Program-made: the position numbers and the translations under genes
Source: a virus
Reading direction: 5' to 3' (one strand)
DNA: 64,000 nucleotides
Virus record (IMG/VR): IMGVR_UViG_3300003154_000789
Span: 61,331-125,330 of that record
Shown: piece by piece, positions 3,566-64,000 of the stretch
Position numbering within the stretch: the first letter of the stretch is position 1
Layout of the letters: every line of letters begins with the position of its first letter
The notes under the pieces: model-generated
Told to the model about the DNA's origin: nothing
What the model saw: only the letters and a program-made list of their open reading frames with translations
The model's database searches: none

Positions 3566-4700
3566 TTAATTCAATGTTTGAACCTCTGGAACTGGTCGAG
3601 AATAAAATTTATAATAATGATATAGCCATGGTTCTTGCATACAGATTATACTCCCATGACCTTTCAGATTGATAGCAAAAGAATCAACATGTTGTAGCTC
3701 TTTATTCATTATCACCCAAAATAATTCGTCAACTTCCTGCATTCCACCGCAAGGTATCATATGCTCGGTAAAATATGCATCCTCCACATACACGTGAGAA
3801 TGTATCATATAATTTATATTAGGAAGCATGTTGTAGAGTGACAACTGTATTGGAGTATCAACACTTGGTTTATGCTCCCCACGATACCATACTTTTCCAT
3901 CATTCATACCGACATGAACAAAAGAATCCAAACTTATACTCGTCTTATCTACATTCCTTTTTGAAATATATATCATGCCTTCTGGAGTACGAAAGCTTGG
4001 AAAACCAGATTCACAACGAAAGGAAGCATTTCCAAGAAACCTGGTGACTTCATTCGCTGGGCGAATCAACTCACTGAATTTATTTCCTGCATCCCTTACA
4101 TTGTCAATGAACGCTTTGATCTCAACGAAAGACTCAAGCTTATCATAACTTTTCCATACATAAGGTGCTTCAGGAGATTGTGTAGTATTCATTCGTATAA
4201 TGGTAAGAAGTTGCTTTGTTCGCTTTGCTATAGCAATCCCAAGCTCTACCATATTTGAACCAGCAAACCACTGGTTTCCTAGCGGATCAAGAAGCTTCGC
4301 TTCGATCTCTTTTGTGCTACTGCTACGATTGAATTCAATTATCAGATTGCTCTTCTTTGACAAAGCATGTGCCATTATATCTTGAAAAGCATACTCATTA
4401 TCGGTATTTCTTTTGGAAGATACCACTATGGATTTCGGATACAATTCTTTTATGTTCTTAAGCTTTGGTAAATGATTCGGAACATTTGGCATCCAAATAA
4501 TTACCTGATCTTTCCTTCCTAGAAGGACAATTTCATCGGGTGTAAGAAGACTTAATTGCCCATAAGATCCTCCGTTCTCGAAATACGTTTCCCCAAATAT
4601 GCCAGATTTTACTATACCGGTATAAATAAGATCAGCAATTTTTGAAGGCTTTCCTCCTTCCATGTCCCATGTACCAGCGATTAGTGTGATAGCTTCCATG
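3566..4700 (-). CDS. class II aldolase/adducin-like domain protein
   Basis: C-terminal KPSVDT...LY...MIHSH and LKGHG motifs; start MEAITL at 4700 with RBS AGGAG. Confidence 0.6.
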
Positions 4701-4716: not shown

Positions 4717-4795
4717 TACCCGCAGGGGGATTTGAACCCAAACCGACCTCCCGCTTATAAGGCAGGTGCTGCTAACCAAGCTGAGCTATGCGGGT
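4717..4795 (-). tRNA. tRNA-Ile(UAU), no encoded CCA
   Basis: ACCCGCA/TGCGGGT acceptor; CCTGC-CTTATAA-GCGGG anticodon arm; T loop TTCAAAT with about 3 extra nt in the T stem/variable region. Confidence 0.85.
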
Positions 4796-6645: not shown

Positions 6646-6720
6646 TCTGGTCGGCAAGATTTGAACTTGCGATCTGATGCGTCCAAGGCACCCGCGGTAA
6701 CCAGGCTCCGCTACGACCAG
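6646..6720 (-). tRNA. tRNA-Pro(UGG), no encoded CCA
   Basis: CTGGTCG/CGACCAG acceptor; GGTGC-CTTGGAC-GCATC anticodon arm; GCAAG-TTCAAAT-CTTGC T arm. Confidence 0.92.
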
Positions 6721-8347: not shown

Positions 8348-8589
8348 TACTTGTTGGTCACTGTCGCTACGCCTTCCTCATTGCTGAGGGCATTGGGTCT
8401 CTCCCAACCACCTTTGACCTGAACTATTGAACAGGTTGTGATCAAGTTTTCCGGGTACTCCAGAGCTAACCGGGTTTATAACACTTCTGGATAGTGTCGA
8501 AGTGAGTATTCTGTCTAAGTTTTATTCCTCACATAACCTACTTACGTCAGAGCCACACTGTGGATGCTTTACACAGGTTCTAATCTTCA

Positions 8590-8790
8590 TTAAGCCTTTA
8601 CAACATTGACTGCTGCAGGACCTTTGTCGCCCTGTTCAATGTCAAAAGAAACTTTGTCGCCTTCAGCCAAGGATTTAAACCCATCAGCTTTGATAGCGGA
8701 AAAATGTACGAATACATCTTTACCATTAGCTTGTTCGATGAAGCCAAAACCCTTGCTGTCATTGAACCATTTAACGATACCGTTTGCCAT
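8590..8790 (-). CDS. cspA: cold-shock protein
   Basis: [13 protein letters not shown]...DVFVHFSAI (RNP1/RNP2); strong RBS AAGGAGG. Confidence 0.96.
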
Positions 8791-8909
8791 TTACGTATAA
8801 CACCTCCTTTTAGTTTATTTTTTGTTTCACTGCCAAGGGTGTTACATAGCGAACGGTATTGCTAGCGAACGGAACTGTATTGCCTTGTACTTATGATGAA
8901 ACTTAAAGA

Positions 8910-8979
8910 GCGGAGAGACACTTCGAATACGGTGTTGTTTTCATTTCCATTGAAGTAACCGTGTTCTTCACTGCTCCAC
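8910..8979 (-). ncRNA. Y-RNA-like ncRNA 3 (minimal copy)
   Basis: GUGGAG/CUCCGC stem; CAGUGAAG...GUUACUUCA motif; GAACACGGU/ACCGUAUUC inner stem. Confidence 0.7.
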
Positions 8980-59164: not shown

Positions 59165-59465
59165 TTTCGGCTATATCAAGAATATGATCCAGAAAATTAA
59201 TCAGTCCATCATATAACTCTTTATCATCTTTGCCATGATCATCATCACTCCACCTGTCCAACTCATCAATAAGCATATTTCTTTGCTTCTTGAGTAGTAC
59301 TATATCAACAGGTTTGTTTATTGATAAACTTTCAACGATCTGATGATTGGTCTTCTTCTTTACATTTTTTGACATTTTCCTCCTTTTGTTCCCATAGTCT
59401 GCCTCTTCTTCCACACTCTCCAAACCACCTTTTACTTCTTTCAATGTCACAAGAGACCCCTTCAT
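59121..59465 (-). CDS. hypothetical protein
   Basis: ORF in gene run. Confidence 0.5.
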   Translation of the reverse strand: MKGSLVTLKEVKGGLESVEEEADYGNKRRKMSKNVKKKTNHQIVESLSINKPVDIVLLKKQRNMLIDELDRWSDDDHGKDDKELYDGLINFLDHILDIAENENFHRPTKHRFGL

Positions 59466-59601
59466 AGACTCTAGTGGTAGTTCCTAATGCGAAGCCATCA
59501 ACATTGCATACCAATGGGTGTTTACACTCTAGAAGAATCGTTCCTGGTTTTTGTACAGACCATTTACAATCGTCGCAGAAACAAGGATATGGTTTTTCCA
59601 T
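59332..59601 (-). CDS. small Cys-rich protein, paralog of 59638..59856
   Basis: MEKPYPCFCDDCKWS...C..P...SC..ER...CG.RG.LWE. Confidence 0.65.
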   Translation of the reverse strand: MEKPYPCFCDDCKWSVQKPGTILLECKHPLVCNVDGFALGTTTRVYEGVSCDIERSKRWFGECGRRGRLWEQKEENVKKCKEEDQSSDR

Positions 59602-59637: not shown

Positions 59638-59856
59638 TTATTTTGTTTCCCAAAGCTTTCCTCTCATTCCACATAGACCAAGAAATATCTTTTCTCTTTC
59701 ATCCTTACAACTGATTCCGGGGGTTATACTTGATAGTGAATCAGAATCTGCAGCGTTCAGAGTCGGTTGCTGGCATGAAAGACTTTTGCTGCGTGCGTTG
59801 GAAATTTCTTTAGACCATTTACAATCTTTGCAGTAGAGCGGATATGGTTTTTCCAT
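59638..59856 (-). CDS. small Cys-rich protein, paralog of 59332..59601
   Basis: MEKPYPLYCKDCKWS...C..P...SC..ER...CG.RG.LWE. Confidence 0.65.
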   Translation of the reverse strand: MEKPYPLYCKDCKWSKEISNARSKSLSCQQPTLNAADSDSLSSITPGISCKDEREKIFLGLCGMRGKLWETK

Positions 59857-59874: not shown

Positions 59875-61454
59875 TTAATCTTCCGAATCGCCCGCTTTTA
59901 AGTTCATTATTGGTTTGACTCGATGAAGGATCTTTGCCGTTGGTGAAATAGCTGCCTCAATGATCTCAGCTGGCTTGTACGCCCCTTTAAGTTCATCGGT
60001 TGGCAATACACTTGTGTAGATACCCTTGGCTGCCATAGAGGCTCTGGCTTCCTCTAAGTTCAACTTTTCCTTGGCAATAGTTCTTGAATACAGACGACCC
60101 GCACCATGAGGAGCAGAAAAGTTCCACTCGGAGTTTCCCTTACCCTCACAGACCAGAATACCATCTTCCATATTGAAGGGAAGGATAAATTTTTCTCCGG
60201 CGTAAGCAGAGACAGCACCTTTGCGGATGATGAAATCTTTGTAATTGATACAGTTATGAACTGTAGTTATCCTTTCGAAGATGTGATCCTCTCGTACACG
60301 CAGTTCTTCAAGGATAGCCTTCATCATAACTTGATGACTCATGTACGCATACCAATTAGCGAAGATAGTATCAATGAGGTACCCATACATGTGCTCACCG
60401 TGTAGAGGTTCAAGACCCTTAGGTGTCTTTGGTACCATATCACGGACACCTTGAAACATTTCCTGCCACTTTTCCTTGGGCTGTTTCTCTTTGATTAAAT
60501 CAAACATCTCGGTCATTGCAACGGACTTCTTGTTTTTCAGGTCTTTTACTGCAATGTCTTGCCAGTATGTGGCGATACGCAGACCTAGATTACGAGAGCC
60601 GGAATGGGTGGTTATACAAGGATAGCTTCTCTCGTCTATGCCGATTTCAATGAAATGATTCAGTTGTTTGTTACTACTATTCGATTCGAATAGCGGATAG
60701 GTCATTTCTGCCTATCTCTCCGGCTTCATTTTATTATCCCGGAGGTCGGACTGTCGCTTATCTTTCGATCTTCTTCACTCAGTCTCTCACGGCACATGCA
60801 TGCATGTTTCCGCCCTGTCGTCCATTTTTATAGGACTTCCAAGTCAATCAGAAGAAGTTTCGGTATTAAACACAAACACTTTGGACCCGGAGGCAATCAT
60901 TTACCACCACCCAAGGTGCCGATAGAATTGATAACATACTGAGCGAAGTCCTTCTTCTTCTTTCTGATGGATACCCTTTCACAGAGTGAAAGAAACCAAT
61001 CAAGATCGATTTTTGGACAACGGTGCTTGCTGCCATATCGTTTGTTGAACGCCAACGTAAACTCGACAGCTTCTTTCTGTACTGTTGCCCAGGGAAAATC
61101 GTTCTTCATGTCGAGCTGTGGTTTGGGATGTACTTCTCCACCCATTGGTATCCTGGCACGTATTCTCTGGTCAAGTTTGTCAAAATCAATACCGCTTAAG
61201 ACGATTGGATCCAATCGCACCATATGCATTTGGCAATAAAGATCAACGCCAACAACATTTGGAATTACATTATCCCCCATAGGCATAGTAAAACCGATGA
61301 CAGCACCTTTGCCAGCATGAGTATCAGGCATGATTTTGATAGGATTGATAAATGAATAGTTGTTTATAAACGCATAAATCTGGCTGGTTGTTGTCTCATC
61401 TATATTATCAATCATTACATCTGCTGTTGTGTACTTTCCTTTGAAGGTGAGCAT
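59875..61454 (-). CDS. rtcB: RtcB 3'-phosphate RNA ligase, two exons (61454-60903 and 60660-59875; 445 aa spliced)
   Basis: MPDTHAGKG, VGVDLYC, GTLGGG|NHFIE, THSGSR, HN, RKGA, SAPHGAGR, DE...AYK. Confidence 0.93.
60661..60902 (-). ncRNA. group I self-splicing intron (242 nt, no ORF) in rtcB
   Basis: Exon ends in U, intron ends in G; P1 with U.G wobble; 6-bp P10 (AUGAUU/AAUCAU); P3 CUUCUUC/GAAGAAG; P7 GACUG/CAGUC; P8 and P9 hairpins; removal restores the frame and GGGNH. Confidence 0.92.
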
Positions 61455-61930: not shown

Positions 61931-62923
61931 TTATTCGGTAATGATTGCAAGCTGCCCGCAGGCCGCTCCGGCTTCCACTTCAGCCTTGGTGGCAATGGCG
62001 ACTGCATAATCGAATCCGGAATTGTCAAGCTGTTTCTTAATGGTCTCTTCTACATTGTTTTCCATATCTTTTCTCCTTATTATACTGCCGTTAAAGTTGG
62101 TTCTCAAATTTTGTCCGTCAAATACCAGATTGCTTTTTGAATCAGTGGTGGGTTTACATCTAAATCTGGTATACAACTTGACTACCTTTTTTCCCCTTTT
62201 AGGAAGGAATAAATAGTTAGCACACCGACAAATGTCGTCATTGCTCCACACTTTGTTTTTGACAAGCCTTTCGTTGAATAGCTTGTCGTCTGGAAACTCA
62301 ACAAAATGTTTCAGGCAAAAATCGTTTGTGGGCATCAGAGAAACGAAACCAACATCATGTATGCCTACAGCACTAGCCCACTCCAGATAATTGGTAATAG
62401 ACTTGTAGTCATGGACTTTCCCTTTTATCATGGTGCACGACAAATGCATTTTATCATTAGCCATAGACCACAAATAGTTAGCCATAGGTACAAGTTTAGT
62501 TCCAAATATCTTCTGATTTTCAATGTCATTGAAATGGTGTCTGGATATGGCTATATTATCCAAATCTTTTATTGCAGCTATTTCTAGCAAACCGTAACCA
62601 TTTGTGTTGACAACTGTAAATGTGTCTTTATTAAATGATTTCACAATTTGCACACATTCTCTTACCAAACCTGGGGCAAATGATGGCTCGCCGACGGTAA
62701 AAGATACTTTAGTAACTGTTACGTGTTTACTCAATAAGGATAAAACTTTTTCAAACTTTTTGATATCGAATTGAAAACCATTATTCTTATTGGCAAAAGT
62801 GCAGAAAGGGCATTTTGCTTGACAAATATCAGTTACTTTTACGTATAGAGATGTATATGGACCATCTACTGGTTGTGGTGCATTTCCATTTAGGGCACAA
62901 TAAACATCACGAAATAGTTCCAT
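61931..62923 (-). CDS. radical SAM protein; the last 44 aa are an RlmN-like C-terminal peptide with its own RBS/ATG (61931..62065)
   Basis: CQAKCPFC (CxxxCxxC); tail MENNVEE...GAACGQL preceded by AAGGAG. Confidence 0.8.
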   Translation of the reverse strand: MELFRDVYCALNGNAPQPVDGPYTSLYVKVTDICQAKCPFCTFANKNNGFQFDIKKFEKVLSLLSKHVTVTKVSFTVGEPSFAPGLVRECVQIVKSFNKDTFTVVNTNGYGLLEIAAIKDLDNIAISRHHFNDIENQKIFGTKLVPMANYLWSMANDKMHLSCTMIKGKVHDYKSITNYLEWASAVGIHDVGFVSLMPTNDFCLKHFVEFPDDKLFNERLVKNKVWSNDDICRCANYLFLPKRGKKVVKLYTRFRCKPTTDSKSNLVFDGQNLRTNFNGSIIRRKDMENNVEETIKKQLDNSGFDYAVAIATKAEVEAGAACGQLAIITE

Positions 62924-63260: not shown

Positions 63261-64000
63261 CTATGCAATGTTGGCTTGGTGTATTATACCTTCGCCAAGA
63301 TCATTTGATTTTGATACGACATTCTCATTGATTGGGCTGATTTTGATGAAAAACTTATCTTTGTCAAACAATGCGGATAGTTTCTCCATTGAAAAATCTT
63401 CAGCCCTTGCCATAGTCAAATTCAGAGTAGTCTTGAGGCGGCTAGCCGTTCTGATCTTGCCCATCTCCTCAAGAGTAATTTTGTGTTTGTATGGGATAAG
63501 CCAATTGCGATAGTTCTCATCAAATGAATGGACACTGAACTGGAGTGTCATATTTGGTCTGATCCAGGAGTAGTCAGCCCCTTGGATGCCAATAGTTGAG
63601 ATGTAATGGTGGATACTTGGATTGTAATGATACAATATGTTGATGGCTTCTTTGACATTTTTAAAATTAAGAAATGGTTCTCCCATCCTGGTATAGTTTA
63701 TCTTGAATTCTTTTGCCCCATCTACCCAGGTACCAATATTCTTATCCATAACAAATTGAACTTGTTGCACGATTTCATCGACTGTAAGATTCCGGAAACG
63801 TTTCATATTTCCTGTAGCACAGAACTTGCATCCTACAGGACAACCGGACATTACAGAAACTCCGACCATCCATCGTTCCAAGCGGGATCCAAGATCACCA
63901 CTTTTGAGGACGTTCTGTTTTGGGCCAATAGCATCCTTTGTATAATAGGGCAAAAAGGTGTCGGTAACTTCGATTGGATAACCATCTTCAGTATGTAATA
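63261..64000 (-). CDS. RlmN/Cfr-like radical SAM protein lacking the C-terminal AACGQL (5' end off the window)
   Basis: Frame open to the edge (..LHTEDGYPIEVTDTFLPYY..); VSVMSGCPVGCKFCATG, RNLTVDEIVQQV, MGEPFLN, QFSVHS. Confidence 0.8.
   Translation of the reverse strand, partial: LHTEDGYPIEVTDTFLPYYTKDAIGPKQNVLKSGDLGSRLERWMVGVSVMSGCPVGCKFCATGNMKRFRNLTVDEIVQQVQFVMDKNIGTWVDGAKEFKINYTRMGEPFLNFKNVKEAINILYHYNPSIHHYISTIGIQGADYSWIRPNMTLQFSVHSFDENYRNWLIPYKHKITLEEMGKIRTASRLKTTLNLTMARAEDFSMEKLSALFDKDKFFIKISPINENVVSKSNDLGEGIIHQANIA

Follow-up and report, generated by a model that had tools for sequence, protein, structure and literature searches.

Group I introns are found in protein-coding genes of phages, among them td, nrdB and nrdD/sunY of T4, the DNA polymerase gene of SPO1, and orf142 and nrdE of Twort. 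Introns of these phages lie at highly conserved active-site motifs of enzyme genes, endonuclease genes are accommodated in a peripheral loop, and intron-free alleles coexist with the interrupted ones. The T4 and Twort introns belong to subgroup IA, which is characterized by an extension between P3' and P8 made up of P7.1 and P7.2. The IC1 intron of the Tetrahymena thermophila large subunit rRNA is a second point of reference. Its P7 consists of an outer pair, a bulged nucleotide and the helix G-A-C-U-R/Y-A-G-U-C, with P9 directly after it, its J8/7 is purine-rich and its J4/5 A-rich.

Selfish elements of another kind are already known from the RNA-repair ligase RtcB, in which 27 bacterial and 10 archaeal cases of inteins have been described (PMC4760082). 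In the huge gut 'Jug' phages, short (about 206 nt on average) and mostly ORF-less group I introns occupy many essential genes; they were detected with published subtype models (PMC12880540), and covariance models for the group I subtypes, derived from GISSD, are available (PMC11835236).

The DNA considered here, referred to as the window, is a stretch of 64,000 nt (positions 61,331 to 125,330 of IMG/VR virus record IMGVR_UViG_3300003154_000789), in which an rtcB gene is split by 242 nt. Judged from its sequence, this insert (60661–60902, minus strand) is very probably, at about 0.9, a group I intron, intact and ORF-less, that a large environmental phage carries in its rtcB. Like the introns of T4, SPO1 and Twort, it lies in a phage protein-coding gene and at a highly conserved active-site motif of an enzyme, it has relatives with endonuclease genes in a peripheral loop, and intron-free alleles exist beside it. 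A further point of agreement is that its wider family is found mainly in ribonucleotide reductase genes. It differs from these in its host gene, in possessing P9, P9.1 and P9.2, in a nearly invariant 7-nt J3/4, in having no match to the Rfam model RF00028, and in lacking the P7.1/P7.2 extension. With the Tetrahymena intron it appears to share the form of P7, the purine-rich J8/7, the position of P9 and the A-rich J4/5, whereas it lacks P5abc and P2.1, is shorter (about 240 nt against 413 nt) and has a protein-coding gene as its host. It resembles the RtcB inteins in being a selfish splicing element at a catalytic motif of RtcB; unlike them, it breaks the reading frame, has internal stop codons and would act as an RNA ribozyme, where the inteins are in frame and spliced at the protein level. 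The rtcB intron is thus a familiar kind of selfish element, RtcB inteins and ORF-less phage introns being already known. Nevertheless, no report of a group I intron in rtcB was found in the literature searched, and rtcB is absent among the intron hosts in the main text of the 'Jug' phage study (PMC12880540).

The rtcB gene and its interruption

The minus strand of the window encodes RtcB in two pieces, separated by the insert:

60903–61454, minus strand: rtcB exon 1, 184 codons, C-terminal end SIGTLGGG; Pfam PF01139 positions 12–153 (E = 1.8e-14)
60661–60902, minus strand: predicted group I intron, ORF-less, 242 nt, recognized from splice-site bases, helices, a covariance model and covariation
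59875–60660, minus strand: rtcB exon 2, 261 codons plus stop, N-terminal NHFIE; PF01139 positions 154–425 (E = 1.5e-28)

The exon 1 reading frame starts at 61454 and ends in ATC GGC ACC TTG GGT GGT GGT, followed by AAA TGA, a stop two codons inside the insert, and the exon 2 frame runs from AAT CAT TTC ATT GAA at 60660 to a stop at 59875–59877. The length of the insert (60902–60661) leaves a remainder of 2 on division by three. Joining the exons without it produces an open frame of 445 amino acids containing GTLGGGNHFIE, in which the RtcB motifs GVDxxC, NH, HSGSR and PHGAGR are retained; exon 1 supplies the metal-motif residues D71 and C74 (GVDLYC). Together the halves cover PF01139 from 12 to 425 without gap or overlap and, as they meet at the adjacent positions 153|154, nothing is missing or duplicated at the break. 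An earlier note on this DNA had placed the exon ends at GGT (60903) and AAT (60660), with U as the last exon base and G as the last intron base, such that excision of 242 nt restores GTLGGGNHFIE. The sequence, the Pfam contiguity and base-by-base inspection all agree with this, and no junction other than 60903/60660 keeps the RtcB frame while also satisfying the group I requirements of a U at −1 and a terminal G.

The histidine of the NH motif is presumably a Mn2+ ligand, equivalent to His203 of Pyrococcus horikoshii RtcB; the metal ligands of RtcB were reportedly described by Englert in 2012 and Desai in 2013. HSGSR and PHGAGR of exon 2 align to the P. horikoshii protein around HTGSR and HGAGR. 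Among PDB sequences, phmmer returned no match for exon 1 and only weak C-terminal matches for exon 2, so the P. horikoshii residue numbering is provisional.

Gene callers render the locus as two 'partial' rtcB genes of 185 and 276 amino acids. An AUG at 60705, in the P9.1 loop CAGAAAUGA of the predicted intron, by chance shares the frame of exon 2 (59875–60705, minus strand), so that ORF finders predict a 276-residue 'C-terminal RtcB' beginning within the intron (MTYPLFESNSSNKQL-NHFIE...). Its counterpart in relatives, for example on contig L208, is not in the exon 2 frame.

Immediately downstream of rtcB come two short Cys-rich ORFs, paralogues of each other (59332–59601 and 59638–59856, minus strand), both beginning MEKPYP..C.DCKWS.... 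Upstream, ORFs at 61931–62923 and 63261–63998 (minus strand) correspond in position to two radical-SAM (PF04055) genes at 1–1532 of the closest relative contig, L205; by this positional match, the arrangement is a conserved gene neighbourhood. Elsewhere in the window there are four tRNA genes on the minus strand (709–783, 2893–2977, 4717–4795 and 6646–6720), which, along with rtcB, fit a phage toolkit for tRNA supply and repair. The Rfam cspA thermoregulator matches narrowly at 8545–8914, minus strand (79.9 bits; gathering score 78), which points to a cold-shock protein gene of the phage preceded by a cspA-like leader.

Structure of the predicted ribozyme

Intron positions are numbered 1–242, the window coordinate being 60903 minus the intron position, and all pairings were examined base by base. 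All elements lie on the minus strand:

60889–60908, minus strand: P1, exon GGUGGU (60908–60903) with guide GCCUCC (60894–60889, intron 9–14), U.G at the splice site
60895–60900, minus strand: P10 guide AUGAUU (intron 3–8), 6 of 6 bp with exon 2 AAUCAU (60660–60655)
60863–60879, minus strand: P2 hairpin GUGUU/AAUAC (intron 24–28/36–40), from base-by-base inspection
60851–60857, minus strand: P3 5' strand CUUCUUC (intron 46–52), 7 of 7 bp with 60770–60776
60789–60843, minus strand: P4-P5-P6-P6a domain, from pairing, with covariation in P5, P6 and P6a
Intron 60–63/86–89: P4 CUUG/CAGG, with A-rich J4/5 (GAA) and J5/4 (GA)
Intron 67–70/80–83: P5 GUCC/GGAC
Intron 90–114: P6 GCGG/CCGU and P6a ACAUG/CAUGU
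60780–60786, minus strand: P7 5' strand G[A]GACUG (G117[A118]GACUG123), pairing with 60748–60753
J7/3: AGU
60770–60776, minus strand: P3 3' strand GAAGAAG (intron 127–133), from pairing and covariation
60760–60769, minus strand: P8 hairpin AUC-GAAA-GAU (intron 134–143), 3 bp in this copy
60748–60759, minus strand: J8/7 AAGCGA and P7 3' strand CAGUCC (intron 150–155), from alignment and pairing
60718–60744, minus strand: P9 hairpin CUCCGG/CCGGAG (intron 159–185), from pairing, kept in relatives
60696–60716, minus strand: P9.1 hairpin GAUAGG/CCUAUC (intron 187–207), conserved loop CAGAAAUGA
60676–60694, minus strand: P9.2 hairpin (intron 209–227), position of the endonuclease ORF in sister introns
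60661, minus strand: omega-G (G242), terminal intron base at the 3' splice site

All of the helices from P1 to P10 are found with a single mismatch overall, a central U.U in P1, which also has the U(60903).G(60894) wobble at the 5' splice site. P3 and P7 cross in the canonical pseudoknot, and the core elements follow in the order P3-P4-P5-P5'-P4'-P6-P6'-P7-P3'-P8-P8'-P7'. The P7 helix GACUG/CAGUC gains a sixth pair across the bulged A118 (G117-C155), and from the sequence the G-C pair beside the bulge would be the expected guanosine-binding pair. The thermodynamic fold of the intron is stabler than that of shuffled sequences (z = −3.3). Three oddities of structure count against an intact group I intron, namely the U.U in P1, the P8 of 3 bp and the J3/4 of 7 nt.

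The elements proposed in the earlier note were recovered on inspection: a P1 with a U.G wobble (GGU/GCC in the note, here GGUGGU/GCCUCC with the U.U mismatch), P10 with 6 of 6 bp, P3 with CUUCUUC/GAAGAAG fully paired (7 of 7), P7 with GACUG/CAGUC, and P9-type hairpins, here P9, P9.1 and P9.2. The same is true of its statement that there is no homing ORF, as the ORF list has none of plausible size inside the 242 nt.

J3/4, usually 3 nt long, is a nearly invariant heptamer, UGAUUGA (60844–60850), across the family, and a conserved GUAACAA (60667–60673) is found 3–9 nt ahead of the terminal G. By eye, no convincing helix was found that would give either the heptamer or the GUAACAA tail a pairing partner.

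Covariation and model searches

A search pattern built from the shared J3/4-P4 and P4'-P6 strands matches in more than 119 IMG/VR contigs. From these a core set of 78 distinct relatives was aligned with MAFFT under a hand-drawn structure, with the 3' partners slid by 1–3 columns as a control. In the core set 98.8% of cells are paired, against 38–49% in the slid controls, both sides change in 19 of 30 pairs (P4 and part of P6 being invariable here because the search pattern fixes them), and covariation scores 0.475 (slid controls about 0.08). The second set, chosen independently, comprises 13 ORF-less introns of full length from the rtcB site. P4 and P6 pairs do vary in this set, the proportion of paired cells is 95.3% (41–47% in slid controls), and changes on both sides are seen in 31 of 64 pairs.

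Double changes occur in P2, P3, P5, P6, P6a, P8, P9, P9.1 and P9.2 of the 13 same-site introns, with two P2 pairs changed on both sides. Among the 78 cores, six of the seven P3 pairs covary, as do all P8 pairs across the family; in P7 the outer pair across the bulge varies as AU/GC/UA and the inner one as AU/GC, the bulge itself being C or A. Five of six pairs covary in P9.1, and P10 has one compensatory change among relatives, from A-U to G-C. The change in P4 is one-sided only (U.G to U-A). P1 cannot covary, since its exon side encodes glycine codons; its guide, the U.G and the U.U are invariant in all 13 same-site introns, which indicates that the mismatch is tolerated. Family members in other genes likewise retain P9 and P9.1, including the loop CAGAAAUGA. 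The group I assignment made in the earlier note therefore stands, the helices named there all being found and all but P1 showing compensatory changes in relatives.

A covariance model built from the 78 cores matches the intron at 60747–60863 with 94.6 bits (E = 1e-21). This is the score of a full-length match, with the family-invariant core positions all kept, and it is the single match in the 141.5-kb record, with no second copy. Searches with Rfam release 15 gave no group I match in the window at gathering thresholds, nor in 60500–61100 at E values up to 10, and RF00028 had no match at the intron copies of six relatives (E up to 1). Matching RF00028 serves as a practical criterion and does not define group I introns. 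On contig L014 a sub-threshold RF00028 match (2748–2958; 26.9 bits, E = 0.005) precedes a copy of the family by about 300 nt and may represent another intron, of a different type, within that gene region.

Distribution of the intron and its family

A protein search with exon 1, restricted by design to proteins of similar length, gave 64 clusters of short RtcB N-terminal proteins, 30 of which end at GGG plus a read-through tail (K, KMIASRP, RMIASGPRQ and similar, each closed by a stop). The 'IAS' in these tails is the translated guide AUUGCCUCC. A pattern combining the junction with the intron core matched 34 metagenome contigs, one of which (L217, AMWB02066165.1) was already known as L205. In 185,579 species genomes the junction pattern had no true match; the only hit, L244, has neither rtcB nor the intron core and is due to chance.

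The examined set contains 27 complete same-site introns, all of which start after GGU and end in G before AAYCAY. Seventeen are 201–397 nt long and ten are 963–1098 nt. The long introns, such as those of L206 and L207, carry LAGLIDADG genes in P9.2, and another lineage, L167, encodes a zinc-finger/NUMOD3 (I-TevI-type) protein with a DUF559-like C-terminus, of which L149 has a remnant. In L206 the UGA stop of the LAGLIDADG ORF (3981–3983) takes its U and G from the end of the intron and its A from the start of exon 2, so that the ORF ends exactly on the 3' splice site.

Intron-less alleles, which the earlier note had suggested should be sought, are common: of 80 rtcB loci in IMG/VR, about 74 are uninterrupted at GGGNH and three (L149, L167 and L201) are interrupted there. 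Its view of rtcB as an unusual intron host holds for the literature searched, but not for nature, where dozens of environmental phage rtcB genes contain a related intron at the same site. In a FastTree tree of 105 rtcB N-terminal regions, for which intron-bearing and intron-free sequences were drawn from differently sampled sources, intron presence needs at least 15 changes, against 26–29 with shuffled labels in the ten runs listed; the intron is accordingly clustered, yet has been repeatedly gained or lost. The closest relative, on L205, has an RtcB of 64% protein identity and the same radical-SAM neighbours. The first 72 bases of the two introns are 95.8% identical, compared with 69% for the DNA of exon 1, a contrast explicable by recent transfer or by strong constraint acting on the ribozyme.

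Outside rtcB the family is widespread. Samples containing relatives come from ponds, groundwater or wastewater. The upstream exons of 64 family members encode mostly ribonucleotide reductases, followed by P22-type coat proteins, with two in rtcB, and the ribonucleotide reductase exons often end at ...TNP of the active-site motif TNPCGE. Among GenBank phages, blastn returned a core of 72% identity that interrupts the P22-like coat gene of an uncultured podovirus; set against this core, compensatory changes in P3, P5, P6 and P7 are visible by eye. The only GenBank phage records with the family are MW202674 (coat gene) and Roseobacter phage CRP-118 (ribonucleotide reductase).

Some contigs have two copies of the family 0.3–1.5 kb apart, as in L084 (2857–2977 and 4310–4436), L119 (4032–4142 and 4503–4612), L025 and L068, and a single gene may therefore contain several introns. 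Several phage rtcB genes have a long in-frame insert at the other metal-binding motif, GVDIxC|G, namely those of L001 (1399–3792; the same as L186), L199, L202 and L201/L117. The boundaries in L001 are ...GVDIGC|FIGE...VHN|CGM..., and one exon sample, probably L117, has a Pfam Intein_splicing match. The rtcB of L201/L117 combines the intein-like GVDIxC|G insert with the GGG|NH intron.

Proposed splicing pathway and alternative explanations

It is proposed that rtcB is transcribed as one RNA, within which the intron folds into a group I core. Free guanosine, bound at the bulged P7, would attack the phosphate that follows the exon base of the P1 U.G (60903|60902). P10 would then align exon 2, and the freed end of exon 1 would attack after the terminal G (60661|60660). 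The joined GGU|AAU would create the GGG-NH codons, part of the RtcB metal site, and the full-length protein of 445 amino acids would be translatable from spliced RNA only. As the histidine of NH is presumably a Mn2+ ligand, active ligase would likewise be encoded by spliced RNA only. We infer catalysis, splicing in vivo and the dependence of RtcB on self-splicing by analogy with known group I introns. The element probably descends from a mobile family with LAGLIDADG or zinc-finger/NUMOD3 endonuclease genes in P9.2 at the same site, and the 242-nt copy would have either lost its endonuclease gene or never had one.

Absence of a homing endonuclease gene is also what a late stage of the intron/endonuclease life cycle would look like, and together with the short P8 and the mismatch in P1 it could mark a decayed, splicing-dead relic, in which case this phage would have rtcB only as a pseudogene. 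Scattered contigs, among them one unspliced relative and none with a spliced joint, were obtained from three RNA-labelled sequencing runs and one DNA run (at most 0.23 of sampled words shared); the missing joint fits a relic, but from contigs so fragmentary it carries no weight in either direction. Such decay is nonetheless unlikely, because the family-invariant core positions are all kept, with a score of 94.6 bits for a full-length match, and neither exon has lost its open frame or its catalytic motifs. The supposed defect in P1 is present in 13 of 13 same-site introns, and intron bases about 96% identical to those of the closest relative, where the exon has fallen to 69%, are not what decay would leave.

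The 276-residue ORF that starts in frame at AUG 60705 could suggest that RtcB is made as two assembling polypeptides without RNA splicing, the other being the 185-residue product ending in GGGK. This AUG, however, belongs to the conserved ribozyme loop CAGAAAUGA, which is found also in family members in other genes, and it is out of frame in relatives such as L208, which makes a two-piece protein very improbable; moreover, the break would fall inside the metal-binding motif, and selection clearly maintains the ribozyme fold that separates the halves. Because the record was assembled from a metagenome and its virus is uncultured, the insert might also be a chimera of assembly. The same exon-intron-exon layout is seen, however, in independent assemblies from many studies, and a wastewater contig from a related strain spans it at 93–96% identity across both junctions, which argues against an artefact; this explanation hardly deserves credence. 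An intact group I intron thus remains the preferred reading of the insert.

Implications

Taken together, these observations might place the intron in a large, perhaps uncatalogued group I lineage of environmental phages that has colonized rtcB many times, although this joint reading is tentative and rather doubtful as it stands. The traits cited for a distinct lineage are the lack of an RF00028 match, the UGAUUGA J3/4, the L9.1 loop CAGAAAUGA and the 3' GUAACAA tail, and at the rtcB site the lineage is associated with at least two unrelated endonuclease types. Such a lineage may merit description in its own right. If the reading is true then, with the intein-like inserts at GVDIxC|G, rtcB would be a previously unrecognized hot spot for phage splicing parasites.

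Recognition of the intron restores a complete RNA-repair ligase to this phage, and the same split-gene error affects dozens of public protein clusters. It also reveals a widespread phage intron family that escapes the standard Rfam model. The 27 naturally occurring introns at this one site, some with endonuclease genes and some lacking them, provide material on the cycle of intron and endonuclease gain and loss, and a ribozyme of about 240 nt, ORF-less and with rich comparative data, could serve as a compact scaffold for splicing or circularization. With an RNA intron and protein-level inserts both present, rtcB is one more enzyme gene in which homing elements target active-site motifs.
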